DNA of 34,634 nucleotides from a virus (lineage: Duplodnaviria > Caudoviricetes), in IMG/VR virus record IMGVR_UViG_3300025466_000007, positions 1 through 34,634 of that record; one strand, given 5' to 3'. The notes beneath the pieces are model-generated. The model was not told the DNA's origin. It worked only from the letters and a program-made list of their open reading frames with translations, and did not search any database. Shown here in pieces: positions 1 to 34,634 of the stretch (the stretch's first letter is position 1; the number at the start of each line of letters is the position of its first letter). Made by a program: the position numbers and the translations under genes.

Positions 1-127
1 ACGCAAAAAAAGGCATACATCATTGCTGATAACAAGTTGGCGATGAATGCTGGATGGGATATGGAGTTGCTCAAGCTAGAAATCAGCGAATTGGAGGACA
101 AAGACTTCAATATTGAGTTGCTTGGAT
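1..127. repeat. Terminal 127-bp direct repeat, left copy (circular assembly overlap)
   Basis: 1-127 is identical to 34508-34634, and the ParB reading frame continues across the junction. Confidence 0.95.
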
Positions 128-360
128 TTGACCCGTCAGAGCTTCAGCTGGATGAGCCAGATTATTCGGTTTTAGACGATGAGGACATCGAGAAACAGCT
201 GGATGACATGGCGCAAGGGGTACGCAAAGCTATTCAAATCGAATTTGAGCCTGACCACTACGATGAAGCGGTACAGCTGGTGAAATACTGGCGTGAGCAA
301 AACGCTTATGTTGGCTACATGATTATGGATTTTCTGCGGAAAGAGAAAAACAAGGCATGA
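1..360 (+). CDS. ParB/Srx-like N-terminal domain protein, 3' part (full gene 34271..34507 joined to 1..360, about 198 aa)
   Basis: Frame 1 from base 1 reads TQKKAYIIADNKLAMNAGWD, continuous with the ORF starting at 34271. The acidic C-terminal region ends in an ATGA overlap with the kinase. Confidence 0.88.
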   Translation, partial: TQKKAYIIADNKLAMNAGWDMELLKLEISELEDKDFNIELLGFDPSELQLDEPDYSVLDDEDIEKQLDDMAQGVRKAIQIEFEPDHYDEAVQLVKYWREQNAYVGYMIMDFLRKEKNKA

Positions 361-815
361 AATGTTATTATTTGGTTGGCTATCACGGATGCGGTAAGAC
401 AACTCAAGCTAACAAGCTAGAAGCAGAACACCCTATTTTTAACTTCATAGGCGGCAAACCAGGATTGGACGCTATCCCTAATGTTCAAACCCTGATGAAA
501 GAGGTCAAATTAAGCAAAACCGATATGTTTATACACGGTTGCATCTTTCAGACCGAGCCGATGCTCAAACGTTTATCCCTAGCAACAGAGCTTCATATCA
601 TCGTTATGCACACTTTCCCCAAAGAAGTCGAAGCAAGGACATTAGCTAGGGGCGCTGACAGCTACAACATCAAAAAATACAAAACTCACTATTCATTTAT
701 TCGCAAATTAAAAATGTGGATAGACGAATACAACTTTCAGGTTCACATCATTGACAACAATAAATCTGTTGAAGACGTGTACAAACAAATTAAAAAAATA
801 TGTGTGCGATCATAG
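357..815 (+). CDS. P-loop nucleotide-kinase-fold protein, putative hydroxymethyl-pyrimidine DNA kinase
   Basis: N-terminal Walker A GYHGCGKTT after a hydrophobic strand, a lid-like RTLARG motif and an NMP-kinase-like C-terminus (IIDNNKSVEDVY). It lies in an operon with an amino acid:DNA transferase. Confidence 0.75.
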   Translation: MKCYYLVGYHGCGKTTQANKLEAEHPIFNFIGGKPGLDAIPNVQTLMKEVKLSKTDMFIHGCIFQTEPMLKRLSLATELHIIVMHTFPKEVEARTLARGADSYNIKKYKTHYSFIRKLKMWIDEYNFQVHIIDNNKSVEDVYKQIKKICVRS

Positions 816-1399
816 GCTTTGTTAGTAAAAACCCTAGTGATGAAGCGATTAAAACGCTGAAAAAGCTGTTTCTTGAGTCAAAAATTAGGGGTAAACACGC
901 ATACGGGTTTGCGGCTAAAGACAAAAACGGCATTACTGCGGTCAAAGAACACAACCTAAAAGCACTTATCAGCCATATTGATGCGCCCAATTTGCTCATC
1001 GGACATTGTCGGTACTCCACCAGCGGGGATTACAAAGATCACGCCAACAATCAGCCAATACAGTTTAAAGACGAATACATGGCATTCAACGGCACGATTG
1101 ACATGAGAACAAAAGCCGAGATGGAGAATAATTACAACATCGTAATGGAAAGCGACAACGATGGCGAAATCATGCTTCAGTCTAAAGACAGAATGCGCTT
1201 ATTAGACGGCAACATAACGTTTGCTGGGCTATTTTTGAAAGGTGATGAAATCACGGCATTCAGAAACGAACACAGACCCGCTTATTGGGCTGTCAAACAC
1301 GATTCACTCTATGTAGCGTCAACAGCCGACATAATGATTAGAAGTCTGCTTAGACCGATACCTCTGACAGCCAATGAGGTCTATAAATGGACGGCTTGA
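800..1399 (+). CDS. Class II (Ntn-hydrolase) glutamine amidotransferase, stand-alone
   Basis: Catalytic Cys2 (MCAIIG), RG motif, GHCRYSTSG, NNQP, FNGTI oxyanion motif and SDNDGE. Confidence 0.88.
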   Translation: MCAIIGFVSKNPSDEAIKTLKKLFLESKIRGKHAYGFAAKDKNGITAVKEHNLKALISHIDAPNLLIGHCRYSTSGDYKDHANNQPIQFKDEYMAFNGTIDMRTKAEMENNYNIVMESDNDGEIMLQSKDRMRLLDGNITFAGLFLKGDEITAFRNEHRPAYWAVKHDSLYVASTADIMIRSLLRPIPLTANEVYKWTA

Positions 1400-2268
1400 C
1401 TGAATACCTCAGTTATCACCGTCAATCCTCACTAGCGGGGGATATTGACCCCCAAAACGATTGTTTACAATACGTTGCCAACAGATTTGAGCTAAATATG
1501 GAACAGCGCTACTGGTTAGCATTCCTATTCGGTACTTGCTACTGCGCCCCAACAGTCTATTACATATACAACGAATTCCCTGATTACAACACTGTAAACA
1601 TTGACAGGCTTGAAAGATGGTGGAAAGCAAACAAAACACGTTTGTTGTTCCAAACCGACAGACAACGGGTGCGGAGCAACGACCAGTTTGTTCAATCTTT
1701 CATTTCATACCGTCAAATTGTGGGGAGAAATCAAGAGGAACACTTCAGTGCGTTCAAACGCAATGACCCCAAGTCTACCTATGTCAATGCGCTGGAAACA
1801 ATGTCTGAGGTGTTTTCCTTTGGGCGGTTCACCATGTTTATTTACCTAGAAATGGTATCGGTGCTTACTAACTGCAAAATGATACCGATTGACCTTGATT
1901 TAAAAAACGCTGAGAGCTGTCGCAACGGGTTAGCATTAGCATTAGACCGAAAAGACTTATTCACACACGTTGTAGACAAAAAGTTAACAAAACACAATTA
2001 TCAAGACCTAAACACGGGACTATTGAAGATAATTGACGAAGTGGCAAAGATGAACATCAACCACAAAAACCTATTTGCTATTGAAACAACTTTATGCGCT
2101 TACAAAAAAGCAAAGCTGGGTAAACGCTTTGTCGGCTACTACATAGACCGTAACAGGGAAGAAATAGAAAAAATGAGCCAAAACATTCCTCAAGGCGTAG
2201 ACTGGAGCGTATTGTGGGATTTTAGAAAGTCTAATTACGACAAAAAGTACCTGAAAGAGCTAACATGA
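1387..2268 (+). CDS. Amino acid:DNA transferase (aGPT-Pplase clade 2, HhH-glycosylase-like fold)
   Basis: DIDP motif, EQRYWLAFLFGTCY, QTDRQR, HhH-like FGRFTMFIYLE and C-terminal IETTLCAYKK...GYYIDR, all characteristic of the family. Confidence 0.8.
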   Translation: MDGLTEYLSYHRQSSLAGDIDPQNDCLQYVANRFELNMEQRYWLAFLFGTCYCAPTVYYIYNEFPDYNTVNIDRLERWWKANKTRLLFQTDRQRVRSNDQFVQSFISYRQIVGRNQEEHFSAFKRNDPKSTYVNALETMSEVFSFGRFTMFIYLEMVSVLTNCKMIPIDLDLKNAESCRNGLALALDRKDLFTHVVDKKLTKHNYQDLNTGLLKIIDEVAKMNINHKNLFAIETTLCAYKKAKLGKRFVGYYIDRNREEIEKMSQNIPQGVDWSVLWDFRKSNYDKKYLKELT

Positions 2269-3066: not shown

Positions 3067-3405
3067 ATGCCCGCACTTCACGTACCTACTGACAACGATA
3101 GAAAGCAAGTCGAAATATCGGCTGGGCTTGGTTTGCCTCACGAACAGATCGGGGCGCTTATCGGCATAGACGACAAAACTTTACGCAAGCATTACCGCAA
3201 AGAATTGGATTTTGGTAAGGCTAAATCAAGTGCCGCTATCGCTAGGTCACTTTACAACAAAGCAATGGGCGGGGATACAACAGCAATGATTTGGTGGACA
3301 AAAGCCCAAATGCGTTGGTCTGAGACAGTCAAAAATGAAGTAACAGGCGCTGATGGCGAACCGTTTGACATTCAGATTACCTTTGTAAAGCCAAAAGATG
3401 AGTGA
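3067..3405 (+). CDS. terS: Terminase small subunit
   Basis: HTH (EQIGALIGIDDKTLRKHY), GDTTAMIWWTK and EVTGADG tail; overlaps the terL start. Confidence 0.8.
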   Translation: MPALHVPTDNDRKQVEISAGLGLPHEQIGALIGIDDKTLRKHYRKELDFGKAKSSAAIARSLYNKAMGGDTTAMIWWTKAQMRWSETVKNEVTGADGEPFDIQITFVKPKDE

Positions 3406-4705
3406 AGTAGTCGAATACGACAAAGACGCTATTGGCAGATCACTTGCCAAAATTGAATTTCCGTTAAAGCTGGAATGCCTATTTAACCCGCCTCAAGCAC
3501 GTTACAGGGTACTTTGGGGTGGTAGGGGCGCATCTAAGTCTTGGAACGTAGCAAGGGCACTTCTCATCAAGGGATACAAGAAACAACTGAGAATACTTTG
3601 CGCCCGTGAATATCAAACATCCATTCGAGATTCTGTACATAAGCTGTTGAGCGATCAAATCATAGCTATGAACATGGAATCGTTCTATGAGATTACCCAA
3701 AACAGCATCAGGGGGCTGAATGGCACGGAGTTTGCATTTGTAGGTCTCAAAAACAACGTTGCAAACGTAAAATCATATGAAGGTATTGACATTTGCTGGG
3801 TGGAGGAGGCACAAAGCGTTTCAAAGTTTAGCTACAACGTACTCATACCGACAATACGTAAAGAAAACAGCGAGATATGGATAACTTTCAACCCTGAGCT
3901 GGAAACAGATGAAACGTATCAGCGCTGGGTAATTGCTCCACCAGCTGGGGCTGTTGTACAAAAAATCAACTGGAGCGACAACCCTTGGTTTCCAGAGGTG
4001 CTAAAACTTGAGAAGGACGCACTCAAAGCACGTGACCTTGAGGCGTACAACACGGTCTGGGAAGGCGTTTGTCGTCAAACAGTTGACGGGGCTATATTTG
4101 CAAAAGAGCTACAGATGGCAGAATTGGACGGACGCATTACCCGTGTGCCTTACGATGCAACCAAACCCGTCCATGCGATATTCGATTTGGGTTGGAGTGA
4201 CGCAACAGCCATATGGCTACTACAGTTTATTGGAATGGAAACAAGGATAATTCGGTACATAGAAAACAGCCAACAAACCATTAGTTGGTATTTGTCTCAA
4301 TTACAAACATTCGGGTATGTATATGACACACTTTGGTTGCCTCATGACGCTGAGAACAAAACGTTGGCTGGAAATGGTCGCAGTATTGAAGAAATTGTCC
4401 GAGCTTCAGGCTACAAAACCCGTATAGTGCCAAGAGTGCCTGTTGTAGATTCAATCAATGCCGCCCGTACAATATTTTCAAATTGTTATTTTGATAGAGA
4501 AAATACGCATCAAGGGTTACAATGCCTCAGACATTATCGCTATGAGGTAGACCCTGAGACGGGAATGTTCAGCAAAACGCCTCTACACGATCAATACAGT
4601 CATGGTGCTGATGCCTTTAGGTATATTGGGCTGATGATAAACGAACCTAAAAAACCTATTAGACAAAAAGCAACGATGCAAATACCTACAAGTTGGATGG
4701 GATGA
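3398..4705 (+). CDS. terL: Terminase large subunit (PBSX/Terminase_3 type)
   Basis: Walker A GGRGASKS, CARE, Walker B ICWVEEA, TFNP, and nuclease motifs DLGWSD and HGADAFRY. Confidence 0.95.
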   Translation: MSEVVEYDKDAIGRSLAKIEFPLKLECLFNPPQARYRVLWGGRGASKSWNVARALLIKGYKKQLRILCAREYQTSIRDSVHKLLSDQIIAMNMESFYEITQNSIRGLNGTEFAFVGLKNNVANVKSYEGIDICWVEEAQSVSKFSYNVLIPTIRKENSEIWITFNPELETDETYQRWVIAPPAGAVVQKINWSDNPWFPEVLKLEKDALKARDLEAYNTVWEGVCRQTVDGAIFAKELQMAELDGRITRVPYDATKPVHAIFDLGWSDATAIWLLQFIGMETRIIRYIENSQQTISWYLSQLQTFGYVYDTLWLPHDAENKTLAGNGRSIEEIVRASGYKTRIVPRVPVVDSINAARTIFSNCYFDRENTHQGLQCLRHYRYEVDPETGMFSKTPLHDQYSHGADAFRYIGLMINEPKKPIRQKATMQIPTSWMG

Positions 4706-10702: not shown

Positions 10703-12198
10703 TGTCAAATCAAACCGCAGTCACCGTCACAACGAATATTGTCCCTGTACAGGCAATATTTGATGTAAATGGCGTTTGCGTTGGATTAGTTGGACCAGGG
10801 GGGGAGTTTTTCTCTCCCCCACTTAGTTCAGACGTTATCAATCAAGCAACGATTACAAACAGCACAATCAATAGTACTGCTATTGGTGCGACAAGCGCTA
10901 GTACGGGCACTTTTACGACAATGACGACCAATAACGCTCAAATCACGGGCGGGTCAATCACAGGCGTAAGTATTACGATTACAGCGTTAAATAATACGCC
11001 AGTTGGCAATATAACGCCATCTACGGGTGCGTTTACTACTCTTTCAGCCACAACTACAACTACAACAAATTTGGCTGTTACTGGTATAACTGGATTGCTT
11101 TACGCAAACGCAACTTCAAACGCAACTGCGGCTACAGCAAATCAAATTGTTAGCGTTATAGGTAATACATATGTTACAAACGCAACAAACGCAACAAACG
11201 CAACAAATACAACCAACATCATTGGTGGTTCTGCTGGAGCTGTTCCTTATCAATCTGCAACAGGCGTAACAGCTTTTGCTACGGGTACTGGCGTATTGGT
11301 AGGCGGTACAACACCAACATTTACAACAACGCCCACAATAACGGGCACAAATATTTCAGGAACAGCATCATCGCTGTCTATTGGTGGTAATGCCGCAACA
11401 GCAACTTCTTCAACTAATTTGGCAGGGGGTTCCACATATGCTTTCCCTTATCAAACATCTTCAGGCGCAACTGCTTTCTTATCTGCGGGCACTTCGGGAC
11501 AAATTTTACAAACGCTAGGAACTGGAGCAATTCCAGCTTGGGTTAGTCAATCTACCCTTTCAGTTGGGTCTGCTTCAAACATCGTAGGCGGTGCGGCTGG
11601 GGAAATTCCTTATCAAACCGCAACTGGTGCAACAGGGTTTACCGCAGTTGGGTCTGCGTCTCAACTTTTGCAATCAAACGGTACTTCAGCCCCAAATTGG
11701 GTGTCAGCAAACACTTTATCGGTGTCGAGTGCAACGAATTTAAGCGGGGGTGGAGCTGGGTACATTCCGTATCAATCTGCGTCAGGAAGCACGTTATTTT
11801 TGTCCGCTGGAACATCTGGATATGTTTTGCAATCAAACGGCACAAGCGCCCCCAGCTGGGTGTTGCCAACTGCTTATGCAACCATAACTGACGATACAAC
11901 TTCAACGGGCACAAGATACCCTTTGTTTGCCAATCAAACAAGTGGTAACGTAGCAACTGAATACACAAGTTCAACAAAACTACAATATCAACCTTCAACG
12001 GGTACTTTGACTGCGACTGTTTTCAGCGGGTCATTAGCGGCATCAAATTTAACTGGCACAACATTGCCCAGTACTATTGTTACAAGCAGTTTGACAACTG
12101 TTGGCACAATTGGAACGGGAACATGGCAAGGAACTATTGTTGCTACGACTTATGGTGGGACAGGAACGTCTCACGGTGTAAATGGGGGTACATTCTGA
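10702..12198 (+). CDS. Repeat-rich fibre protein
   Basis: Thr/Ser/Gly-rich with four PYQ-containing repeats. The TGATG-coupled start at 10702 is preferred over TTG at 10687. Confidence 0.7.
   Translation: MSNQTAVTVTTNIVPVQAIFDVNGVCVGLVGPGGEFFSPPLSSDVINQATITNSTINSTAIGATSASTGTFTTMTTNNAQITGGSITGVSITITALNNTPVGNITPSTGAFTTLSATTTTTTNLAVTGITGLLYANATSNATAATANQIVSVIGNTYVTNATNATNATNTTNIIGGSAGAVPYQSATGVTAFATGTGVLVGGTTPTFTTTPTITGTNISGTASSLSIGGNAATATSSTNLAGGSTYAFPYQTSSGATAFLSAGTSGQILQTLGTGAIPAWVSQSTLSVGSASNIVGGAAGEIPYQTATGATGFTAVGSASQLLQSNGTSAPNWVSANTLSVSSATNLSGGGAGYIPYQSASGSTLFLSAGTSGYVLQSNGTSAPSWVLPTAYATITDDTTSTGTRYPLFANQTSGNVATEYTSSTKLQYQPSTGTLTATVFSGSLAASNLTGTTLPSTIVTSSLTTVGTIGTGTWQGTIVATTYGGTGTSHGVNGGTF
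11176..11208 (+). repeat. 9-bp tandem repeat (ACAAACGCA x3 plus a partial copy) encoding TNA-TNA-TNA-TN
   Basis: Directly visible in the sequence. Confidence 0.9.
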
Positions 12199-12512
12199 TG
12201 TTTAATTGGAAAATACTTGAAGTTCATTCAGAAAACGAAACAATTACGCAAGTGCGTTATTTTGTTTCTGTGAATGACGGAACAAATATTGTTGCAACAG
12301 AAGGATGGTTGCCAATAAAAGAACGCACACCAAAACCCGATTTCAACAGTATTCAACATGAGACAGTATGTTCTTGGGCTAGAGAAGATTCAACTCAAAA
12401 TGGTGTAAATGCCATAGAATCTAGGTTACAAGAGCAATTAGATGCTTTGAATAAAAACGTCAATACAAAAGCACCTTGGTCTCCACCTGAAACTTTTAAA
12501 GTGAGCGTGTAA
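12198..12512 (+). CDS. Fibre-associated hypothetical protein (possible fibre chaperone)
   Basis: TGATG-coupled start MFNWKIL, C-terminal APW; sits between two fibre genes. Confidence 0.6.
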   Translation: MFNWKILEVHSENETITQVRYFVSVNDGTNIVATEGWLPIKERTPKPDFNSIQHETVCSWAREDSTQNGVNAIESRLQEQLDALNKNVNTKAPWSPPETFKVSV

Positions 12513-13657
12513 TGGCACAAACAGGGTATACCCCAATACAACATTATTATTCAATTACAGGCGGTAATACTCCTACAACTGGTAATTTGACTTTAGGTGA
12601 AATAGCTATCAATGTAGCAGATCAAAAAGTCTATATGTTGAATTCAGCAAGTAATGCTATTGTTACTCTTGTTGGTACGTTAGGCAATCAAAATTCTAAT
12701 AGCGTATCCATTACAGGCGGTTCAATAAACGGAACTACCATAGGCGCATCAACAGCATCTACTGGAGCGTTTACTACTATTTCTGCTTCAGGCGTGATTA
12801 CGTCTACGGTTTCAACAGGAACAGCGCCATTTACAGTAGCCTCAACTACACAAGTAGCTAATTTAAATTCTGCAACAGCTGGTACAGCTACAAACGCAAC
12901 CAATGTAGCAACAACAGACAATACTTCTAGTTCATCTACTTATTACCCAACTTTAGTTAGTGCAACCAGTGGTAATAATCCAATTACAACATCTAGTACT
13001 AAACTTAGTTTTGTACCTAGTACAGGGGTTTTGAGTACAACTGGACATAATTTAAGTGGTTTAACTGCCTCAAGTGCTGTTGCTACTGATGCAAGCAAAA
13101 ACCTTGTTAGTGTTACAAATACTGGAACTGGTAATAATGTATTAGCTACTTCTCCAACATTGGTCACACCAGCTTTAGGAACTCCATCTTCTGTTAATTT
13201 AAGCAATGCAACTTCTCTTGCAGTAGCCGCTTTGCCTACAGGGTCTGTAATTCAAGTTGTACAGGCAACATTAACAAGTCTTTTTTCAACAACTGCGGCA
13301 TCTTTTACATCTACTGGATTAACAGCTTCAATTACACCTCAATTTTCTACAAGTAAAATTCTTGTTTTAATTTCTACTTATGGATTGGCTTTAGTAGCAA
13401 ATGGACAAGCCAGTTACACAATTTATAGAAATTCAACAAATTTAGCATCTGGTAGTGGGTTGAATCAATCTTTTAGTGAATTAAATGCAAATTTGAGTCC
13501 TTCTCAAGCATCTTTGGCAATTAGTTATTTAGATTCACCATCAACAACATCTTCAACAACATATACTTTATATGCCGCGGCAATAACTTCTGGTGATGCA
13601 GTATATATAAACAATGCGAGTGGCACAGCAGTAATCATATTAATGGAGATTAGATAA
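12512..13657 (+). CDS. Tail fibre protein
   Basis: N-terminal PTTGNLTLGEIAIN anchor motif and C-terminal GSVIQVV...ASITPQFSTSKILV...YLDSPSTTSSTTY tip domain. Confidence 0.72.
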   Translation: MAQTGYTPIQHYYSITGGNTPTTGNLTLGEIAINVADQKVYMLNSASNAIVTLVGTLGNQNSNSVSITGGSINGTTIGASTASTGAFTTISASGVITSTVSTGTAPFTVASTTQVANLNSATAGTATNATNVATTDNTSSSSTYYPTLVSATSGNNPITTSSTKLSFVPSTGVLSTTGHNLSGLTASSAVATDASKNLVSVTNTGTGNNVLATSPTLVTPALGTPSSVNLSNATSLAVAALPTGSVIQVVQATLTSLFSTTAASFTSTGLTASITPQFSTSKILVLISTYGLALVANGQASYTIYRNSTNLASGSGLNQSFSELNANLSPSQASLAISYLDSPSTTSSTTYTLYAAAITSGDAVYINNASGTAVIILMEIR

Positions 13658-13923
13658 TGCAACCCACAATACATGATGCGGTCAGATCAGTATATTCAAA
13701 CGTAGTAACTATTTATGGTAATGACGTTAGTTCTTTAACTTGTTTAGATGTTAATGATGCTGAAGTAATAATTGTTCCTGCAACAGTAGAAACAAAATTA
13801 ACTGAATTACAAACTAACTATACTGCACAACAAATAGCAACTGCTAATGCTAAAGCATCTGCACTAGCTAAGTTAACTGCACTTGGTCTAACAGCAGATG
13901 AAATAAATTCAATAACAACATAA
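13657..13923 (+). CDS. Small fibre-associated protein (putative assembly chaperone)
   Basis: TAATG-coupled to the fibre gene; C-terminal KASALAKLTALGLTADEI motif typical of post-fibre genes. Confidence 0.55.
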   Translation: MQPTIHDAVRSVYSNVVTIYGNDVSSLTCLDVNDAEVIIVPATVETKLTELQTNYTAQQIATANAKASALAKLTALGLTADEINSITT

Positions 13924-13938
13924 TAAGGATATAAAAAA

Positions 13939-15348
13939 ATGTCTTTGACTAAAGTTTCATATTCAATGATAACTGGGGCTTACGCAAATGTGCTTGATTT
14001 TGGCGCTGTTGGTGATGGTTCAAATAATGATGCTAGTGCAATTAATAGTGCAATTTCTTATGTAAATTCTCAAAATGGTGGCACAGTTTATTTTCCAACT
14101 GGAAAATACAACATTGGTTCTACACAACTAACTATTTATCCAAGCATTCGATTAGTTGGAGCCGCAACAAGTGGCGGTGGTCAAACTGGAAATCCAGGAG
14201 CTACTATTTTATATAGTGGAACTGGTGTTTCTGGCGCACCTTTGTATGCAATAAAAGGAACAAATTTAACTAATACTTGTATTGAAAACATCACATTAAA
14301 TGGTGCTGGTAACGCATATACAAATGGAATTTATTTACAAGGTGCTTGGCTTTGTACTATTAAAAATGTAAAAGTTGGTGGTTTTATTGCTGTAAATGGA
14401 TTTGGAATATTAATTGATACTCATCAAGGTGCATTTGGCGCACAACATAATTACATTGAAAAATCAGAATGTTCAGATGGTATTGTTGCATTTATTGGAA
14501 CAAGTGGGGCAGATGAAGTAACTACAACTGTAGTTAATACTTTTAGAGGTTATATGTATCAAGCATATAACTGCCAAGTTACATTTATAAATGCCACGGC
14601 TGAAGGATTTCCAAGTATTGGTTTTGATTTTCAATACACTAATCAAAGCGTAATGATTAATTGTGATTTAGAAGGAAGTGGAACTACTGCAATAAGTATT
14701 GCAAGCGCATCTTCTGTAATGGCTTTTGGGAATACATTTGCAGGATTTACAGGTACAAATAAATATGTTGGAAATTTATCTTCATATACAACTTATGGTG
14801 GTGGACTCCAAATTACTAAAGAAGGGTTATCTTCTGGTAACAATTTTCCTTTTTTAACTTTTGGAAATTTAGCAGATTCAAATTATGTAGGTTATGGTGC
14901 TACATTGAATAGTTCAACTGGTGGCTCACAAGATGGAAGTCCGTTAATTCAAAGGTCAATTAGTGGTACTGTTACACCAGTATGGGAATTTAAAAACGGT
15001 TTAAGAATTGAATATTCTAAAACAATAGCTACAACTGCAACATCATTTTTTACATTAAACACAAACTCAACCAATGGCGGTTCAATTAAAGTTACTGCTA
15101 TTGGAGCAGACACAAGTGGTAATTCATTTTCAGTTTATAAAGAAGCGGTGTATTCTAATAATTTTGGAACTATGTTAATTTCAACTGGAAACGCATTAAC
15201 AACAACTGGAACGACTGATTCTTTCACATTTACTTCTTCAGGTTCTTCATTAATTATTCAATTTGCTGTTGCTGGATCATCTGTGTCAACTGGAGTTAAT
15301 TTTGTAATACAAGTTGATGGTACTTTTACTAACTATGTATTAAATTAA
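13939..15348 (+). CDS. Tailspike / pectate-lyase-like beta-helix depolymerase
   Basis: NVLDFGAVGDG...AINSAI...GGTVYFPTGKY signature followed by beta-helix-like repeats. Confidence 0.85.
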   Translation: MSLTKVSYSMITGAYANVLDFGAVGDGSNNDASAINSAISYVNSQNGGTVYFPTGKYNIGSTQLTIYPSIRLVGAATSGGGQTGNPGATILYSGTGVSGAPLYAIKGTNLTNTCIENITLNGAGNAYTNGIYLQGAWLCTIKNVKVGGFIAVNGFGILIDTHQGAFGAQHNYIEKSECSDGIVAFIGTSGADEVTTTVVNTFRGYMYQAYNCQVTFINATAEGFPSIGFDFQYTNQSVMINCDLEGSGTTAISIASASSVMAFGNTFAGFTGTNKYVGNLSSYTTYGGGLQITKEGLSSGNNFPFLTFGNLADSNYVGYGATLNSSTGGSQDGSPLIQRSISGTVTPVWEFKNGLRIEYSKTIATTATSFFTLNTNSTNGGSIKVTAIGADTSGNSFSVYKEAVYSNNFGTMLISTGNALTTTGTTDSFTFTSSGSSLIIQFAVAGSSVSTGVNFVIQVDGTFTNYVLN

Positions 15349-15361
15349 ACAAGGATAAAAA

Positions 15362-15862
15362 ATGACTGTATATTTATCATCTTTTGCTGGTGCTGGAGCA
15401 CAATTTTTTGATAATAATGGTGTTCCTTTGGCTGGAGGATTTATTTATACTTATTTGGCAGGCACAACAACTCCACAAGCAACTTACACTTCAAATAGTG
15501 GGTCAATAGCTCAAGCAAATCCTATTGTTTTAGATTCTAGTGGTAGAGTTCCTAGCGGAGAAATTTGGTTAAATCAACTTGTATTGTATAAATTTGTACT
15601 TCAAACATCTGCTGGAGTAACAATAGGTACTTATGACAATATAAGTAGTATTGCAGGGTCAATTCCAGTAATTTCAGATTTTACAGGCACAGGAAGCCAA
15701 ACAACCTTTACACTTTCATTATTACCAGTAGGATTAAATACAACTAATGTTTTTATAAATGGTGTCTATCAAAATAAAAATTCATATTCTATTTCTGGCA
15801 CAACATTAACATTTACTCAAGCCCCGCCTGTTACTTCTTTAATTGAAGTAAGTTATGCTTAA
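15362..15862 (+). CDS. Tailspike N-terminal/adaptor-like protein
   Basis: QFFDNNGVPLAGG..YTY.AGTTTP..TY...NPIVLDSSGR particle-attachment-type domain plus a short beta domain; no catalytic domain. Confidence 0.6.
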   Translation: MTVYLSSFAGAGAQFFDNNGVPLAGGFIYTYLAGTTTPQATYTSNSGSIAQANPIVLDSSGRVPSGEIWLNQLVLYKFVLQTSAGVTIGTYDNISSIAGSIPVISDFTGTGSQTTFTLSLLPVGLNTTNVFINGVYQNKNSYSISGTTLTFTQAPPVTSLIEVSYA

Positions 15863-15871
15863 AGGTTAAAA

Positions 15872-16849
15872 ATGACTACACCAAATGATATTATTAGCAG
15901 AGCATTAAAAGACATTGGCGCATTGGAGGCTGGAGAAGTCCCAACAGCTGATGCGGCACAAGACGCTTTTAATATGTTATTAAACATGCTTGACCAATGG
16001 TCAAATGAAGAAATGATGGTGTACTATCAGTCTGAAATAATTTGGACTCTTACGTCAGGTCAAACTCAATACACTATTGGACCAGGAGGAGAAATAGGTG
16101 CTGTGTTTACTGGTTCTATATCAGGAACAACTTTAACTGTTACTTCAATCACTTCAGGGGCAATAAACCTGAATCAGACAATCAGCGGTACAGGTATAAC
16201 AAATGGCACTAAGATTGTTGCTTTTGGTAGTGGAGCTGGGGGAAATATCAATGAAGCGGGAACATACCAACTCAATGTAAATTACCCAACAGGAGTGTCT
16301 TCAACAACAATCAACGCTTTTTATCCACGTCCATTAGCAATCAATTCGGGGTTTGTACGTATAGCTACCAATAGCAACGGTTATCCGATTGTGAATGGCG
16401 GTTTAGATTATCCTTTGACTGTTTTAGACTATGACAGCTATCAATTGATTGGTCTAAAAACGCTAAATGGACCATGGCCCAAAGCATTTTATTATCAGCC
16501 AACAGAAATTTTAGGTAACATTTTCGTATGGCCTAATCCAGCCCAAGGCGAAATGCATCTTTTTGCCGATACTTTGTTTTCTCAATATACCAATTTAACA
16601 GATACGATTACATTGCCACAAGGCTATAACATGGCTCTTGAATGGTGTTTGGCTGAATATTTAATGCCTTCATATGGCAAGGCTTCTCCAACACAAATAC
16701 AAATGATTCAACAATTTGCGGCAAAAGGCAAATCTACGGTCAAACGTACAAATATGAAACCACCCAAAGTGTCTAGATATGATGAAGTCATTACTACATC
16801 ACGTTCCAAAGATGCTGGGTGGATTTTGTCAGGCGGTTTCTTTAGATAA
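15872..16849 (+). CDS. Head-to-tail adaptor, P22 gp4-like
   Basis: [11 protein letters not shown]...[14 protein letters not shown]-terminus and LPQGY..AL...LAEYL C-terminus; lies upstream of the gp10-like gene. Confidence 0.72.
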
Positions 16850-16859
16850 AGGAAAAGAT

Positions 16860-17132
16860 ATGATTTATTTATTTATTGTCTTTTGTTTGCTCCAATGTGC
16901 TGATATTTACACAACTTGGAAAGCCTTGTTTACAAATGTTGGACATGAGGCTAATCCAATTATGGCTTGGTTGTTTTCTGAAGTTGGATTAAAAGCAGGA
17001 TTGGTGATTGCCAAAGTTATGATTTGTGCAATTATTTATTATTTTGTTACTCAAGATTGGTTATTAGCAATATTAGATATTGCTTATGCTGAGATTATTT
17101 GGAACAACTTTAAAGTATTAAAAAATGGCTGA
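16860..17132 (+). CDS. Small membrane protein (DUF5658-like)
   Basis: AAGGA RBS before ATG 16860; D..TT...G.EANP motif and three hydrophobic segments. Confidence 0.65.
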   Translation: MIYLFIVFCLLQCADIYTTWKALFTNVGHEANPIMAWLFSEVGLKAGLVIAKVMICAIIYYFVTQDWLLAILDIAYAEIIWNNFKVLKNG

Positions 17133-18588
17133 TTTTGGCTTTGTTGGTCCATCATATGAAGCGCCTAGTATTTACCAGGATGCTCAAGAATGTATCAATT
17201 TTTATCCTGAAATAGACCCTCTTAAACAACCAGGTGTAAGAGGTGTTGTTGCGCTATATCCAACTCCAGGTTTAACGCAAATTATTCAACCTGAAATTGG
17301 TCCAGTAAGGGCTATGAGGAATTTATCGGGTAATTCAATACTTTTGGTTGTAATAAATGCTTCTGTGTATAAAGTAACAACATCTTACACATACACGTTA
17401 ATTGGCAATCTTAGAACTAGTACAGGTTTTGTATCTATATCAGACAATATTACTTCTAATAACGGTTTAACAGCATATATTGTAGATGGTCCAAATCGTT
17501 ACACATGGATTGCCAAAAGTAATACGTTTGAAATTTTGCCGTCAACTGATGGACCATGGCAAGGCGCTTCAGTTGTAGACGTTTGCGACAATTACAACAT
17601 TTATAACAACGTAGGAACTCAAAATTGGGCTTGTACAGACCTTGGATCAAGTTTATCGACAAATGCTTATTACGGTACAAAAGATGCCGCACCTGACCCT
17701 ATTGTTACTTTAATTGCAAATCACAGACAAGTTTATTTACTAGGTCAACAAACAACTGAAGTTTGGGTTGATGTTGGAAATGTCGTAACAGGTATTATTT
17801 CATTTCCATTCCAGCGTATTCAAGGAACAATGATGCAACACGGTTGTGCGGCTATCGGTTCTGTTGCTCAATTTTCTGAAATGTTTATGTTCGTATCTAA
17901 AGACAACAGAGGTCAAGGAATTATTGGGGTTGTACAAGGATACACTTTTACAAGAATTTCTACTCACGCTGTTGAACAAACGTTATTGAATCAAACCATA
18001 TCAGATGCTATTGCTTATACATATCAACTTGAAGGTCATGAATTTTATGTTGTAAATTTTCCTTCAGTCAATATAACTTGGGTTTATGATCTTGCTAGTC
18101 AAATGTGGCACAAATGGTTATCTTGGGATGGCACTCAATTTAATAGACATCGTTCTAATTGTGGTGCGTTTTTCAATAATTCTTATTTGGTGGGAGATTA
18201 TGCTAACGGAATAATTTATTCTTTAGACAACAACAATTACACAGAAAACGGTTCAACTATTCGCAGAATCAGACGTGCGCCTCACATTACAAGCGATTTA
18301 CAAAGACAATATTTTTCTGAGCTTCAAATTCAATTTCAGCCTGGAGTTGGTTTGGAAACAGGACAAGGTAAAAACCCACAAGCTATGTTGCGCTGGAGTA
18401 ATGATGGTGGATCAACGTACTCTAACGAACATTGGGTAAGTATTGGGGCTGTTGGTAAATACAAAAACCGTGCTATTTGGAGACGTTTAGGTTGGTCAAG
18501 AGACAGAATTTTTGAAGTTGCAATAACAGACCCTGTTAAAGCAGTTATTGTTTCAGCAAATTTAAAAGCTGAAGTTGGGGAAAATTGA
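17125..18588 (+). CDS. Packaged-DNA stabilization / tail hub protein, P22 gp10-like
   Basis: ECINFYPE, LYPTPGL, YQLEGHEFY and LRWSNDGG...WRRLG..RDRIFE motifs. Confidence 0.88.
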   Translation: MADFGFVGPSYEAPSIYQDAQECINFYPEIDPLKQPGVRGVVALYPTPGLTQIIQPEIGPVRAMRNLSGNSILLVVINASVYKVTTSYTYTLIGNLRTSTGFVSISDNITSNNGLTAYIVDGPNRYTWIAKSNTFEILPSTDGPWQGASVVDVCDNYNIYNNVGTQNWACTDLGSSLSTNAYYGTKDAAPDPIVTLIANHRQVYLLGQQTTEVWVDVGNVVTGIISFPFQRIQGTMMQHGCAAIGSVAQFSEMFMFVSKDNRGQGIIGVVQGYTFTRISTHAVEQTLLNQTISDAIAYTYQLEGHEFYVVNFPSVNITWVYDLASQMWHKWLSWDGTQFNRHRSNCGAFFNNSYLVGDYANGIIYSLDNNNYTENGSTIRRIRRAPHITSDLQRQYFSELQIQFQPGVGLETGQGKNPQAMLRWSNDGGSTYSNEHWVSIGAVGKYKNRAIWRRLGWSRDRIFEVAITDPVKAVIVSANLKAEVGEN

Positions 18589-18794
18589 TGGCAACACAAC
18601 CAAATTCCAACATCAACATTCCACAAGGACAATTTCTTGATCAAACAACTGGAAGACCGTCTTTACCTTGGCTGTTGTGGTTACAAAATCCTAGTTTTAT
18701 TCAAACTACAACTGGTCAACAAACAATAAACGGAAACGAATATATAAATGGCACTTTAAACGCAATAGGCGGCATCTCTGGAGGTGTATTTTGA
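18588..18794 (+). CDS. Small tail protein (needle/plug position)
   Basis: TGATG-coupled after the gp10-like gene; FLDQTTGRPSLPW motif. Confidence 0.5.
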   Translation: MATQPNSNINIPQGQFLDQTTGRPSLPWLLWLQNPSFIQTTTGQQTINGNEYINGTLNAIGGISGGVF

Positions 18795-19300
18795 TGGAGC
18801 TTGTACTTACCCCCAGTAGCGAATTATCGTTTGATTCCGATGATTCTAAGCATCAATATGAAGTTTTGGAACAGTTAGCCAAAGTCCCAAACCGTCAAGA
18901 GATTGAACAATTACAGACTGAAATTGCGAAAATGGAACAACCAGTATTTGATACTGAACATTATTTCAGCGGTGGTATGTATTGCCGAAAATTGCCAAGA
19001 AAAGCTGGAACGTTGATTGTCGGGAAAGTACACAAAAAAGAACATTTTTTTATGTGTGCCAAAGGAGAGATTATTGCTTGGACAGAAAAAGGGATGCGTA
19101 AACTGAGTGCGGGCGATATAATTGAATGCAAAACAGGCACTAAACGTGTTACTTTAGCATTAACAGATGCCATTGGAATTACGGTACACATTACCGATAA
19201 AACCAATATTGATGAAATTGAAACAGACCTGGTTGAGCCTGATGAGTTGTCAATGTATGCCCCAGGAAACGTCTTGAAAACAAAAGTTTTAGGGAGTTAG
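18794..19300 (+). CDS. Cupin-like hypothetical protein
   Basis: HYFSGGMYCR...AGTLIVGKVHKKEH...GTKR double-stranded beta-helix-like pattern. Confidence 0.55.
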   Translation: MELVLTPSSELSFDSDDSKHQYEVLEQLAKVPNRQEIEQLQTEIAKMEQPVFDTEHYFSGGMYCRKLPRKAGTLIVGKVHKKEHFFMCAKGEIIAWTEKGMRKLSAGDIIECKTGTKRVTLALTDAIGITVHITDKTNIDEIETDLVEPDELSMYAPGNVLKTKVLGS

Positions 19301-20024: not shown

Positions 20025-21542
20025 ATGGCATCTTTTAATTTTGATACTTCAGCGATACAAGCCAAACCACCACAAGTTGAGCAAATGAAACTCAGCGATA
20101 TGCTGAACATGGCTTCAAAAGGGTATGAGCTAAAGAAAATGAAAGAGCTGTACCCAGCTATGATTGAAAAAGCTAAAGCTGAATCTGAATCGGCTCAATC
20201 TAGCGCTTTAATGAAAGATATTGAAGCATCACAAGCAACAATTCGCAACAAAGAACAAATAAAGCTCAATGCGTTCATGCAAGACCCAAAAAATTACATG
20301 GACGAAAATGGCGACATAGATTTGACTAAAGCCAACAAAGCTATACCAATTATTGCGCCAATGACAGGAACAGATCATTTAAGTAAATTGTCTACACTTG
20401 CTCAAAACAATACTCTTGCTAAAGACGCTAAACTTAAATTTAGTCAAAACGAAAGAGAAATTGTTGCGTCTACTTATGGCGCATTGGGGCGTGCTAACGT
20501 AACAGACCCAAAAGAATATGCTAGTGCTTTAGACAATTTAGTTAAAGCATTTCCCGATAGTCCTTCAATGAAACAATACGCTGATGCGGCTAAAGGTAAT
20601 TTGATGATGGTTGGAGATCATTCAAAATTACCCGCTGTTGCTATTGGTACGGCTAATCAGTTGCTTACATTGCCACAACAACAAACAGCATTTACTCCTA
20701 CAACAAATGTTGCCACAGTTGGCGGTCAACAAGTGCCCGTCACAACAACACCTTCTGCTACTGGGGGCGCACCTCAAGTTAATGTTGGTCAATTTGGAGG
20801 AACAACACCACAAACAAAACCACCAGCTAGTGCGCCTGGAATGCCTAAAATTGTTAACGAAGACCCAAATCTTACATATAGTGGACCAGCACAACCGTTA
20901 CAACTCAATCCAGTTCAAGAAGGTTTATTCAAAGCTGGTCAAGAAAACTTTAACAAATTACCCGCACTTCAACAACAGGCTCAAGAAGCTAAAGAATACG
21001 TGCGAGGCGCAACGAACGCTATTGATGCGGCTAAAGGTAGTACCCTTACTCAAAAACTGCAAGCGGGTGGCAAATATGTGTTTGAAAACCCAGAATTAGA
21101 TCGTTTAACTAAAAACTTGGCTGGTGTGCTTGTTTCTAATGCAAACACAATGGGCTTGAATCGGTCTGATGCTTCTTTTGCCGATGCTGAAAAACTAAGC
21201 GGTAGTGCCAAAATATCGAATGAAGCACTTAAAGACATATTGCAAAGGGCGGATGCTCAAGCAAGTGCGGCTGATAAGTATGCTACTGCTGTTAAAAATT
21301 ACCGTGAAAAGCGTGGCGAAATCAATGCTAGTATTCATGAAGGAAGATTCAAATCAGCATGGTCTAATGCTTATGATTCAAAAATATTCCAAATGGATAA
21401 CATTGCAAATTCTAATTTGCCTGATGAAGAAAAAACAGCACGCATACAAGATTTGACTAAAAATATGTCGCCAAGCGCATACACAAAATTTGTAAATGAT
21501 GCTAAAGTAATTCATCGTCTTGAGCAAGGAAAATACCAATGA
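20025..21542 (+). CDS. Putative DNA ejection protein (gp20 position)
   Basis: Large helical Ala/Lys/Gln-rich protein in the ejection-gene position. Confidence 0.55.
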   Translation: MASFNFDTSAIQAKPPQVEQMKLSDMLNMASKGYELKKMKELYPAMIEKAKAESESAQSSALMKDIEASQATIRNKEQIKLNAFMQDPKNYMDENGDIDLTKANKAIPIIAPMTGTDHLSKLSTLAQNNTLAKDAKLKFSQNEREIVASTYGALGRANVTDPKEYASALDNLVKAFPDSPSMKQYADAAKGNLMMVGDHSKLPAVAIGTANQLLTLPQQQTAFTPTTNVATVGGQQVPVTTTPSATGGAPQVNVGQFGGTTPQTKPPASAPGMPKIVNEDPNLTYSGPAQPLQLNPVQEGLFKAGQENFNKLPALQQQAQEAKEYVRGATNAIDAAKGSTLTQKLQAGGKYVFENPELDRLTKNLAGVLVSNANTMGLNRSDASFADAEKLSGSAKISNEALKDILQRADAQASAADKYATAVKNYREKRGEINASIHEGRFKSAWSNAYDSKIFQMDNIANSNLPDEEKTARIQDLTKNMSPSAYTKFVNDAKVIHRLEQGKYQ

Positions 21543-23926
21543 CAGACGTAGCTGATGATGTAGACGTACCTGGTCTCAAGTATTTGAAGCCTGTCGCACC
21601 TACTGCGTCAGCTACAACTGCTCCAGCTACTGAAGCGCCCCCCATCAATTCTGATTTACAAGATCGTATTTCAAGGCTTAATGACGAATGGAAAACACGC
21701 AAAGACCTTAACCCAAAAGGTTTGGATTTGCCAATCACAAGCAAATCACGCACATACGATCAAGAAAAAAAATTATATGATGCTTGGATTGCTAGTGGTA
21801 AAAAAGGTAATTTAGTCGCATTTCCTGGTACTAGCAAACACGAAAGCGGAGATGCTTTTGATCTTTTGCCAACTGTTCCTGACGAATTGTTAAGCAAATA
21901 CGATTTGCACAGACCTTTTGGAGCAAAAGACCCCGTACATGTTGAATTAAAACCTGGTACTGTCACGGCTCAAGCTGATGACATAGATGTGCCTGGACTT
22001 AAATATTTAACGCCTCCTAGCACGGTTACAGCACAAAAAACAGCCAAAACAACCCCGTCAATTACTTTGCCAACAACGCAAGAATTGAAAAAAACTGCTG
22101 GTGAAACAATATACAACCCTGAATGGTGGGCTAAAGACATTGCGGCAAAAGCTGACGTTGCTTATGGCGGTCTATTGGGCGCTGGACAATTTGTTGCTAC
22201 ACCATTTGCTAAAGCGGCAGATTATTTGACTAATTCTACGGCTGGTACAGACGTATTGAATCGTGTAGCGGATTTTGCTAGTCATCCTGTTGGTAAAGCA
22301 ATGGGCATCACTAATGACCCCGTATATCAAAAAGAAGTTGCTACAAAAATATTGGGTACGATTGCTCAATATGCTGACAAACCAATCTCATACATAGCTG
22401 AACAAACAGGATTACCCAAAGACGAAGTATCTTGGTATGCACAAGCGGCTGGTATCAAATTAGCACCAGTTGTCGGAAAAGCTGTTGCTGAAGGCGCTGG
22501 TAAAGTAAAAACTGCGGCTATTGAGGGCGCTGAAAATGTTGGCAAAGCTAAAGAACAAGTACAACAACAGTTTAAAACGCTAAAAGAAACAATGAAGCCT
22601 GAAGCAAACCCAAATTTGCGTAGCATTGGTGCGGCTGAAGCTGATAAGGTTTCTGTGCGTAAAGCTAATGCTCAAGATTTGTGGGAGCCAATGGACTTAG
22701 AAAGAAGTCAGCTGACCAGGGATTTTGGCGATGTAAATTGGGCAAGGGAACACGCAAAAGACCCTGTTGCTGGAAAATTGTTTCGTGATTTGTACGCAGA
22801 TCAAAACGCTAAAGTTGCTACCAATTTCCAAAAAGCTATTAACAATACGGGCGCTGAATTAACAGGCGTTGAGCGTTCTGAACTTGGTCAAAAAATAAAC
22901 GATGTTGTTGACACATACAAAAAAGATCGTTATCAAAAAGTTAGTGAAGCCTATAATGCGGCAGATAAAGCTGGTGAAACACTTGAACAAGTTTCATATA
23001 AACCTTTGCTTGATTACATCAACAATAAACGTCCAACCGTAAAAAAACAAAATCCTATTCTCAGTACGATTGAAGAAGAATTGGCACACAATGACCCAAT
23101 TCAAATAAGAGAAGTACTAGACAAAGAAGGAAAAAAAGTACAAGAAGAATATCAAAATGGCACAATCAATTTGCGTCAATTCGAGGATATTCGTAAACTA
23201 ATTGCTGAAGAAACAGAACAAGGCACATCTAACGGTTTTCATGGCAATCAATTGCGTAAAACCATAGACCAATTGACAGCCAACAAAGGCGGCGAATTAT
23301 ACAAAACAGCACGTAAACTCAACACAGATTACATGACTGAGTTTGAAGACACGCCTACTGTTAAAAACATTACAGCACTCAAAAAAGGCACGGTTGACAG
23401 GGTTGTTCCATTAGAACAATTACCCGAAAAATTGTTACTCAGCGCTACAAAAGATCAAGTACAACAAGTGTTTAACACTTTAACTAAAGCTGGACCAGAA
23501 GGTCAGCAAATGATAAATGAGCTAAAAGGGGTTTTGGGCGAACATTTGCGTGACCAAACATTCCAAGGCGTTAACAGAGACGTACATGGAAATTATGTAC
23601 CATCTGCGCCTAAACTTAATGCCGCATTGGAAAAGTTAGACAAAAGCGGAAAATTGGATTTGGTGTTTGGTAAAAAAGATGCTGAACGTTTTAGAACGCT
23701 TAATGAAGTTGTACAGGATATTCGTACAGTACCTGAAGGTTCAGTTAACTATTCGGGTACTGCATCTAACCTTAAAACAATGTTGGCTGATATAGCGGGT
23801 TCATACGCTTTAACAGGCGTACCAGCACCATTAATTATGGGCGCAAAATATACTGCAAATCAATTTAAAACGCTTAGAGACGTCAATAGGGTCAAAGACT
23901 TTATTGATTTTGGAAAAACAAAATAA
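21539..23926 (+). CDS. Large DNA ejection protein (gp16 position) with an N-terminal M15-type Zn peptidase domain
   Basis: ITSKSRTYDQE...PGTSKHESGDAFD...DPVHVE (SxHxxGxAxD and D/ExxH motifs) and C-terminal NYSGTA. Confidence 0.72.
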   Translation: MTDVADDVDVPGLKYLKPVAPTASATTAPATEAPPINSDLQDRISRLNDEWKTRKDLNPKGLDLPITSKSRTYDQEKKLYDAWIASGKKGNLVAFPGTSKHESGDAFDLLPTVPDELLSKYDLHRPFGAKDPVHVELKPGTVTAQADDIDVPGLKYLTPPSTVTAQKTAKTTPSITLPTTQELKKTAGETIYNPEWWAKDIAAKADVAYGGLLGAGQFVATPFAKAADYLTNSTAGTDVLNRVADFASHPVGKAMGITNDPVYQKEVATKILGTIAQYADKPISYIAEQTGLPKDEVSWYAQAAGIKLAPVVGKAVAEGAGKVKTAAIEGAENVGKAKEQVQQQFKTLKETMKPEANPNLRSIGAAEADKVSVRKANAQDLWEPMDLERSQLTRDFGDVNWAREHAKDPVAGKLFRDLYADQNAKVATNFQKAINNTGAELTGVERSELGQKINDVVDTYKKDRYQKVSEAYNAADKAGETLEQVSYKPLLDYINNKRPTVKKQNPILSTIEEELAHNDPIQIREVLDKEGKKVQEEYQNGTINLRQFEDIRKLIAEETEQGTSNGFHGNQLRKTIDQLTANKGGELYKTARKLNTDYMTEFEDTPTVKNITALKKGTVDRVVPLEQLPEKLLLSATKDQVQQVFNTLTKAGPEGQQMINELKGVLGEHLRDQTFQGVNRDVHGNYVPSAPKLNAALEKLDKSGKLDLVFGKKDAERFRTLNEVVQDIRTVPEGSVNYSGTASNLKTMLADIAGSYALTGVPAPLIMGAKYTANQFKTLRDVNRVKDFIDFGKTK

Positions 23927-33287: not shown

Positions 33288-33524
33288 ATGGCTGAGACAG
33301 ATTCTACAAAGACTTGCAAAGACTGTACATACTTGCAACAGCAACAAAATACGCATTTAGGCGTGTGCAGAAGATACCCGATATATCAAAGTCGGCATAT
33401 AAATGAATGGTGCGGTGAATTTTCCCCACTAATGCTCGAATTACCCGTTATTTCTCTACCAATGTTAGACATTGAGGAAAACGACAAACCAAAACGCAAA
33501 ATGTCTAGGAGGGTTCAACCATGA
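33288..33524 (+). CDS. Small Cys-rich (Zn/Fe-S-binding-like) protein
   Basis: CKDC...CRRYP...WCGEF pattern; GGAGG RBS. Confidence 0.65.
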   Translation: MAETDSTKTCKDCTYLQQQQNTHLGVCRRYPIYQSRHINEWCGEFSPLMLELPVISLPMLDIEENDKPKRKMSRRVQP

Positions 33525-34099: not shown

Positions 34100-34299
34100 T
34101 TACATTCAAAAGTTTAACTGTTAAAGAAGTCGAAACAATCCTGGCTGGGTTGATGGAATTGCCTAAAAAGCTGTCTGATGAGTTACACGCCAAGCTACAC
34201 GCTGACGCAACTGCTCAATATCAAGCTGTTGTAAAAGCAACAGAACAAACCGCCCCAGCTGAAGCCGCCAATGAAACACCCTCAACAGCGCAAAGTTAA
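34096..34299 (+). CDS. Hypothetical protein
   Basis: GAGG RBS; LTVKEVETILAGLMELP motif. Confidence 0.55.
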   Translation: MITFKSLTVKEVETILAGLMELPKKLSDELHAKLHADATAQYQAVVKATEQTAPAEAANETPSTAQS

Positions 34300-34634
34300 C
34301 GAACTAATCCCCTACATTAACAATAGTAGGACGCACTCTGATGCTCAAGTCGCACAAATAGCGGCAAGCATCAGGGAGTTTGGCTGGACAAACCCGATAC
34401 TGATTGACGGAGAAAACGGCATCATAGCGGGACACGGACGGCTCAAGGCGGCAATGCTATTGAATATGGAGGAAGTGCCCATCATAGAGCTGTCTCACTT
34501 GTCTGAAACGCAAAAAAAGGCATACATCATTGCTGATAACAAGTTGGCGATGAATGCTGGATGGGATATGGAGTTGCTCAAGCTAGAAATCAGCGAATTG
34601 GAGGACAAAGACTTCAATATTGAGTTGCTTGGAT
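34271..34634 (+). CDS. ParB/Srx-like N-terminal domain protein, 5' part (continues through the circular junction)
   Basis: MKHPQQRKVNELIPYINNSRTHSDAQVAQIAASIREFGWTNPILIDGENGIIAGHGRLKAA..., a ParB-like domain with the GHGR motif. Confidence 0.88.
   Translation, partial: MKHPQQRKVNELIPYINNSRTHSDAQVAQIAASIREFGWTNPILIDGENGIIAGHGRLKAAMLLNMEEVPIIELSHLSETQKKAYIIADNKLAMNAGWDMELLKLEISELEDKDFNIELLG
34508..34634. repeat. Terminal 127-bp direct repeat, right copy
   Basis: Identical to 1-127. Confidence 0.95.

Follow-up and report, generated by a model that had tools for sequence, protein, structure and literature searches.

What does a stand-alone glutaminase do beside an amino acid:DNA transferase in a phage genome? 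The question is raised by a gene cassette in IMG/VR virus record IMGVR_UViG_3300025466_000007 (Duplodnaviria; Caudoviricetes), which we analyzed over its whole stretch of 34,634 nucleotides (the window). The cassette consists of five overlapping genes ahead of the terminase, encoding in order a ParB-like activator, a kinase, a glutaminase of the glutamine amidotransferase type (GATase), the amino acid:DNA transferase (AADT), and a TET/JBP dioxygenase. From sequence comparisons and predicted structures, we consider it probable that GATase and AADT make up a two-subunit glutamine amidotransferase, which would use ammonia on activated thymines to give 5-aminomethyl-deoxyuridine (5-NmdU). A preliminary description of this DNA had proposed AADT as the synthase partner of the glutaminase; the ParB, P-loop kinase, and TET/JBP members of the cassette were missing from it. 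The features are as follows (ORF, open reading frame; 5-hmdU, 5-hydroxymethyl-deoxyuridine; 2OG, 2-oxoglutarate).

34271..34634, + strand: ParB-like activator, N-terminal part of a 198-aa ORF that continues through a 127-bp overlap into 1-360
1..360, + strand: ParB-like activator, C-terminal part; this piece matches ParB-like PHROGs
357..815, + strand: P-loop kinase, likely a 5-hmdU DNA kinase, 152 aa, with a Walker A motif
800..1399, + strand: stand-alone class II (Ntn) glutaminase (GATase), predicted ammonia-donor subunit, 199 aa
1387..2268, + strand: AADT (PF18724), predicted synthase subunit, 293 aa
2265..3047, + strand: TET/JBP 2OG-Fe(II) dioxygenase, likely thymine hydroxylase, with H177-x-D179, H228, and R242
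3067..4705, + strand: terminase small and large subunits, directly 3' of the cassette (context)

Pairing of the glutaminase with the transferase

Of the 80 nearest loci, 79 have the GATase gene beside the AADT gene, and the remaining one is truncated by the contig end. The pairing is therefore not due to chance. After 14 reference, off-target, or self records had been set aside, a near-full AADT was present in 383 of the fetched loci, which form 142 clusters at 90% identity. GATase was present in 129 of the 142 clusters; four lacked it despite full flanks and nine lacked it on short flanks. The order of genes in the cassette varies among clusters: GATase adjoins AADT in 50, lies one ORF away in 53, lies farther away in 25, and is fused to AADT in one. 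In a 50%-identity library that holds 544 AADT relatives, fusions made up eight of the best 150, seven by Pfam and one by our own profile. These fusions fall in three places of the tree (FastTree), and strong branches force two of the three. Searching from the GATase side for longer homologues gave no fusion at E<=1e-8, although this search was insensitive, since the profile search from the AADT side gave eight.

The GATase ORF starts with Met-Cys and matches Pfam GATase_6 over the cut-off (E 1.9e-8). As the preliminary description had stated, it is a class II glutaminase standing alone: its 199 aa comprise the bare glutaminase domain with no fused synthase, and its ORF overlaps the start of AADT by 13 bp (gap -13, measured in the identical locus L001). 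Its model (pLDDT 93.8) matched the glutaminase domains of PurF and GlmS in Foldseek (1ao0, E 4.3e-11, TM 0.77; 1xff, E 6e-10), indicating an Ntn-hydrolase fold. The residues C2, R30, G31, H69, R71, Y72, T74, N97, G98, and D121 are intact, and the catalytic and glutamine-binding positions align with those of B. subtilis PurF (Arg26-Gly27, the His-x-Arg-(Tyr/Trp)-x-Thr loop, the Asn-Gly pair, and Asp123). We take Asn-Gly to be the oxyanion pair and presume for it and Asp123 the role assigned to them in class II glutaminases. All ten positions were invariant in 125 out of 125 clustered relatives with a readable start, and the N-terminal Cys directly follows Met in 125 out of 126. By sequence and predicted structure, the window GATase is a member of the class II glutaminase family. 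Among cultured phages, the best matches (best 40 of 160 records) were of the PaP3/LUZ24 type and 31% identical. In PaP3-type phages this 31%-identical GATase adjoins amidoligases.

AADT matches Pfam ADDT (E 2.9e-19; 70.1 bits vs a cut-off of 26.2). A structural aligner matched its model to PaMx11 gp46 (8z2m; 253 residues at an rmsd of 3.2 A, Z 19.1); Foldseek gave gp46 at E 3e-3 only, and searching the PDB by sequence gave no useful match. C237, E233, T234, and D21 correspond to gp46 C247, E243, T244, and D24, which are the catalytic Cys and metal ligands, and D91 is intact too. The donor pocket, in a register read from sequence alignment and not from structural superposition, consists of I152, A238, K241, R247, and Y252. 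In YuA, K159 and K248 are reported to hold the glycine carboxylate (PMC13458397), and these two lysines correspond to I152 and A238. The residues of the glycine transferases (gp46, YuA, and M6) are thus absent, with I152, A238, R247, and Y252 in place of the two lysines, Tyr257, and Asp262. The acidic pair D238/D243 of the diamine transferases (15599 and PhiW-14) is absent as well, its positions being R247 and Y252. The Asp common to all five characterised transferases is Tyr252 here, and Tyr in 129 out of 129 clusters. Judged on these residues, AADT is a family member, yet outside the glycine and diamine subtypes. We found no such cassette in cultured phages, where the best AADT matches were about 29% identical (best 60 of 377 records). 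One cultured phage, Lysinibacillus phage LysYB1, carries an AADT of the wider clade (M3_0048) beside 5-hmdU kinase genes (L213:5965-7884). The C-terminal region of SP10 gp185 (L219:19652-22342) resembles this LysYB1 AADT by eye, and in P0122 a TET-associated glycosyltransferase is fused to AADT.

The preliminary description had suggested modelling the GATase-AADT complex. The predicted complex reached an ipSAE of 0.91, against 0.00 for the best of three controls; this mark was attained by 116 of 157 solved pairs and by 2 of 215 mismatched ones, counts that are only approximate with the alignments used here. Separate runs agreed in at least 96% of contacts, and the pLDDT of the partners was at least 93. 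On the AADT side, the predicted interface comprises residues 33-39, 62-74, and 269-275. On the GATase side, it includes 28-33 and 72-74, the predicted ammonia-gate loops, which by the PurF alignment correspond to GlmS Arg26 and Trp74. In GlmS, Arg26 is thought to couple the two sites, and rotation of Trp74 opens the ammonia channel (PMC7000685). No solved complex of such a pair was found in PDB searches.

We then compared the interface between clusters with and without a visible GATase. The interface motif R33-x-E/D35 was present in 127 of the 129 clusters with GATase and in none of the seven without. N62 was lost in all seven of these and G270 in six. Over the seven clusters, conserved interface columns were kept in 38 of 84 cases (45%), vs 307 of 385 (80%) for other conserved columns, while C237, K241, R247, Y252, and R255 were kept in 7 out of 7. 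Interface residues thus appear to decay without a visible GATase while the active site persists, which supports two proteins acting as one enzyme. Comparing the GATase-side interface residues with PaP3 orf45 showed no clear difference. The predicted docking on the ammonia-gate face, the natural fusions, and the loss of the interface all support the proposal that AADT is the synthase partner, and GATase and AADT likely form one two-subunit enzyme.

Some neighbors of the pair vary among relatives. In L353:1909-7069, a GATase-AADT fusion lies beside a 5-hmdU kinase pair and a dUMP-hydroxymethylase-like gene, which suggests that the pair also works with pre-replicative 5-hydroxymethyluracil (5-hmU). 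Some cassettes carry a low-molecular-weight phosphatase-like gene (L211:687-1118), fused to AADT in P0052, and its product might reverse or edit phospho-5hmU. A GP88 domain (PF17338) is fused to or lies beside the cassette kinase in L195:5809-7095 and L196:6348-6941.

Tailoring genes in the window and in relatives

If the amine is made directly, which genes act on it afterwards? The preliminary description had recognised no tailoring gene in this genome, and our searches agree. Among the 57 window ORFs, Pfam found no member of the pyridoxal-phosphate (PLP), radical-SAM, flavin, GNAT, or amidoligase families. Our own GNAT, amidoligase, and radical-SAM profiles, as well as PaMx11 gp47, gp48, gp50, and gp51, had no match in the six frames of the window at E<=0.5.

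The relatives differ in this respect. A GNAT was found in 83 of the 129 clusters with GATase, and a gp47-like flavin lyase in none. GATase and AADT are separated by an ORF of about 134 aa in 47 of the 79 nearest loci; five of five such ORFs tested were GNATs, three of them over the cut-off. This 134-aa family is the commonest GNAT among the clusters, and other GNAT families occur in L133/L135 (AADT 65% identical to that of the window), L212, and L303. When two of the 134-aa GNATs were searched against 50,697 phages, gp48 and its kin made up 13 of 15 and 15 of 18 matching records (E 6e-7 to 0.3). A Thermocrinis virus GNAT match (E 0.3) was set aside, being by annotation not in such a cassette. 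In PaMx11, the GNAT gp48 is reported to act only on 5-aminomethyl-dU made by the lyase (PMC8989533). Of the 129 clusters, 83 carry a GNAT and none a lyase, so the glutaminase stands where the glycine-plus-lyase route would be. By analogy with PaMx11, the amine product is supported indirectly by these acetyltransferases in relatives without the flavin lyase.

A second large clade (L221-L300) has GATase together with a 212-aa GNAT in 62 of 80 loci; an optional amidoligase is present in 34 of the 80, and the TET proteins are long, at about 430-500 aa. We found no cultured-phage match for this 212-aa GNAT family. In this clade, the amidoligase might glutamylate the amine instead of the GNAT acetylating it.

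In some loci TET/JBP is absent, and the cassette reads ParB-kinase-[GATase]-AADT-GNAT-radical SAM-terminase (L302:4307-8725, L303:4672-8656, L307:83-4149, L309:2622-6394, and L347:20-2219). A radical-SAM gene of about 420 aa (Pfam E 4e-6) stands in place of TET/JBP, and from its position its product is a candidate oxygen-free thymine hydroxylase. Most TET-less loci lack GATase.

A proposed route to 5-aminomethyl-deoxyuridine and its rivals

Three lines favor ammonia as the nucleophile, namely the predicted docking face, the pocket residues, and the GNAT companions. In the route we propose, TET/JBP, aided by ParB, would hydroxylate some thymines in replicated DNA to 5-hmU, as shown for members of its family. 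The kinase would phosphorylate 5-hmU, as related kinases do. Lee et al. showed that glycine or serine is added by AADTs to DNA bearing phospho-5hmU and proposed a Cys-linked exocyclic methylene, for M6 gp51 from mutagenesis and trapping (PMC8989533); the Cys has been shown to be required in homologues. Here, Cys237 of AADT would add to C6 and the phosphate would leave to give such a methylene, the corresponding residues being present. The new step would follow, in which the docked glutaminase splits glutamine and hands ammonia to the methylene. Amidotransferase synthase sites commonly accept free ammonia. Lacking an acetyltransferase, the window phage would retain the free cationic amine as its final base, while relatives with a GNAT would acetylate the amine to the PaMx11 base. 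By analogy with other hypermodified phages, the cationic amine would likely shield the DNA from host nucleases. The position of the cassette beside the terminase suggests that modification occurs late, near packaging.

Several observations weigh against an ammonia-using amidotransferase. Seven clusters show no GATase, so the GATase subunit may be dispensable. Only four of the seven are fully flanked; in L347 the upstream flank is 19 bp long, and L354 appears degenerate. The seven represent four changes on the tree, two of them forced, so Fisher p-values for the comparison overstate the independence of the clusters. Absence of GATase here holds for the fetched flanks; whole-record searches missed even the known GATase of L302. 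The locus queries came from this AADT clade, so the cluster counts describe the clade and not all AADTs. K241, R247, and R255 are common to ViI gp247, a serine transferase, and the AADT pocket may therefore still bind a carboxylate. The GATase fold also matches the gamma-glutamyl hydrolase EgtC (Foldseek E 8e-9). An amidoligase, which could use the ammonia instead, occurs in 30 of 129 clusters, though it is lacking in the window genome and in 63 of 87 well-flanked clusters. Among cultured phages, the best match to the GNAT (E 1e-10) was one from a huge phage, which does not lie in a cassette of this kind.

Four other explanations compete with this route. AADT could install a whole amino acid, either the glutamate released by the glutaminase, as in the alpha-glutamylthymidine of SP10, or a serine-like donor. 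The three basic residues common to ViI gp247 could hold carboxylates, and relatives without a visible GATase keep the pocket. We regard this as unlikely: the predicted docking falls on the ammonia-gate loops, and the GNATs of 83 clusters would have no primary amine to act on if glutamate were N-linked. Nor should a docked glutaminase be required to transfer glutamate, which cells contain in abundance. SP10 gp185, which lies beside the SP10 kinase, gave no AADT match, and there was no glutamyl-transferase pocket to compare. The same final base could be reached in two steps if a gamma-glutamyl amine such as glutamine were attached by AADT and then trimmed by the Ntn enzyme in the manner of EgtC, with the amidoligases of some clusters as possible makers of gamma-glutamyl donors. 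PurF and GlmS rank above EgtC among the fold matches, amidoligases are lacking from the window and from most well-flanked clusters, and an amide nitrogen is a poor nucleophile, which makes attachment followed by trimming quite unlikely.

The ammonia could also amidate a carboxyl on DNA, either that of a transferred amino acid or that of a kinase-activated 5-carboxyuracil made by iterative TET oxidation. Phage T-dioxygenases are reported to support iterative oxidation in vitro (PMC13229309), and the PaP3-type GATase adjoins amidoligases. Such amidation needs an ATP-dependent ligase, of which there is none in the window genome or in most clusters, and GATase is predicted to dock on AADT and is also found fused to it; we consider this very unlikely. 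It is hardly probable that GATase is an accessory or structural subunit while AADT uses another small cytoplasmic nucleophile. Cassettes of kinase, AADT, and GNAT do persist without a visible GATase (L303, L307, and L358), but across 125 clusters there is no variation at any of the ten positions for catalysis and glutamine binding.

Returning to a GATase-AADT amidotransferase that delivers ammonia, we lean towards a widespread class of glutamine amidotransferases acting on double-stranded DNA. 5-Aminomethyl-dU would be the final base of this and similar phages and, in relatives, a common handle capped by acetyl or possibly glutamyl. If this is true, five genes would turn ordinary T-DNA into amine-tagged DNA in any host. 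It would be a third nitrogen route, besides amino acids and polyamines, and would predict the base for more than 100 uncultured phage clusters. It would offer a minimal five-gene, fully post-replicative system, and DNA labelling would benefit from an enzymatic way of placing a primary amine on thymines.

Genome context and comparison with known systems

The ends of the window overlap by 127 bases, so it reads as a circular phage genome of 34,507 bp. Pfam on its 57 ORFs found a P22-like portal, coat, and terminase, and recognised neither a DNA polymerase nor a thymidylate synthase. The ParB-like activator matched ParB_N under the cut-off (E 2e-5), and is an undivided ORF of 197-198 aa in the nearest relatives with sufficient upstream flank, such as L001-L003. 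The kinase had no Pfam match over the cut-off; it matched a PHROG of guanylate/thymidylate kinases (E 5e-5) and has seven invariant columns in common with PaMx11 gp49. The match of TET/JBP to Tet_JBP (E 3.4e-8, 33.3 bits) was below the cut-off of 34.9. A scan for promoters and terminators gave chance level only.

Elsewhere in the window, a GroES-like chaperonin (Cpn10, E 1e-5, over the cut-off; 33521-33799) lies in the late genes just 5' of the cassette. A cupin-like ORF follows the tail stabilisation gene (18791-19300), and the N-terminus of a 795-aa ejection-type protein (21539-23926) weakly matches a VanY-like peptidase. The tail-fibre and adaptor genes (12001-18000) have a GC content of 33-39%, vs about 43% elsewhere, which suggests a swapped host-range module.

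The gene content of the window is that which defines ParB-dependent clade C1 of the T-dioxygenases: TET/JBP with ParB, kinase, GATase, and AADT, and no neighboring C5-methyltransferase, none having been found by Pfam among the 57 window ORFs. The clade C1 neighborhoods reported by O'Toole et al. 2026 have the same gene set, with terminases among the commonest neighbors (PMC13229309). By gene content, the window cassette is of this published ParB-dependent type. O'Toole et al. described these dioxygenases as consistently linked with GATases, kinases, and AADTs, and tested their hydroxylation of T to 5hmU, in which several members were weak (<5% 5hmU). In the portions of their text and supplements covered here, we found no role for GATase and no final base, and three TET motifs of the window were not found in the construct table (PMC13229309). 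Lee et al. listed amidotransferases as co-occurring genes of unknown function (PMC8989533), and the main text of Li et al., who map the AADT donor pocket, does not mention them (PMC13458397). No report of this product or of an ammonia donor was found in the literature covered, with Iyer et al. 2013 and the supplements of PMC8989533 and PMC13458397 outside its scope.

The pairing of GATase and AADT genes is already published, so only the mechanism is new. Iyer et al. 2013 reportedly defined these families and may already discuss amidotransferases. Papers of 2021 and 2026 list GATases beside thymidine-hypermodification genes, and the amidotransferase reading would give them a specific, testable job. 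The minimal, acetyltransferase-free cassette and the interface-loss test are also new.

The closest known chemistry is the PaMx11 pathway to 5-acetylaminomethyl-deoxyuridine (5-AcNmdU), which runs through the gp49 kinase, the gp46 glycine transferase, the gp47 flavin lyase, and the gp48 GNAT (PMC8989533, PMC11472151). The two systems have in common the AADT fold, the catalytic Cys, Glu, and Thr, and the predicted 5-NmdU intermediate, and relatives of the window carry a gp48-like GNAT. In PaMx11, however, the nitrogen comes from glycine in two steps and 5-hmU is made before replication. Without PaMx11's glycine lysines, lyase, GNAT, and dUMP hydroxymethylase, the window phage is not a member of that pathway. 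The nearest characterised AADT is the serine:DNA transferase gp247 of Salmonella phage ViI (E 3e-30 to our own profile). It has Trp at 238 and Asp at 252, whereas the window clade has Ala/Ser and Tyr, and it lacks the interface residues R33-x-E35 and G270.

The use of a glutamine amidotransferase by a phage to modify DNA has a precedent in phage 9g, whose Gat-QueC takes part in dG+ synthesis (PMC6884629). Gat-QueC differs in acting on 7-deazaguanine with a QueC partner, and whether it acts before or after insertion into DNA is given as unknown in PMC6884629. With PurF and GlmS, the window GATase has the glutaminase fold and residues in common, as well as predicted partner contacts at the Arg26 and Trp/Tyr74 loops. 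The synthases of PurF and GlmS have small sugars as substrates, whereas the synthase predicted here is a helical enzyme for DNA bases and, in most cases, a chain of its own. By analogy, the window pair would combine a nitrogen supply like that of PurF and GlmS with base chemistry like that of PaMx11 gp46.

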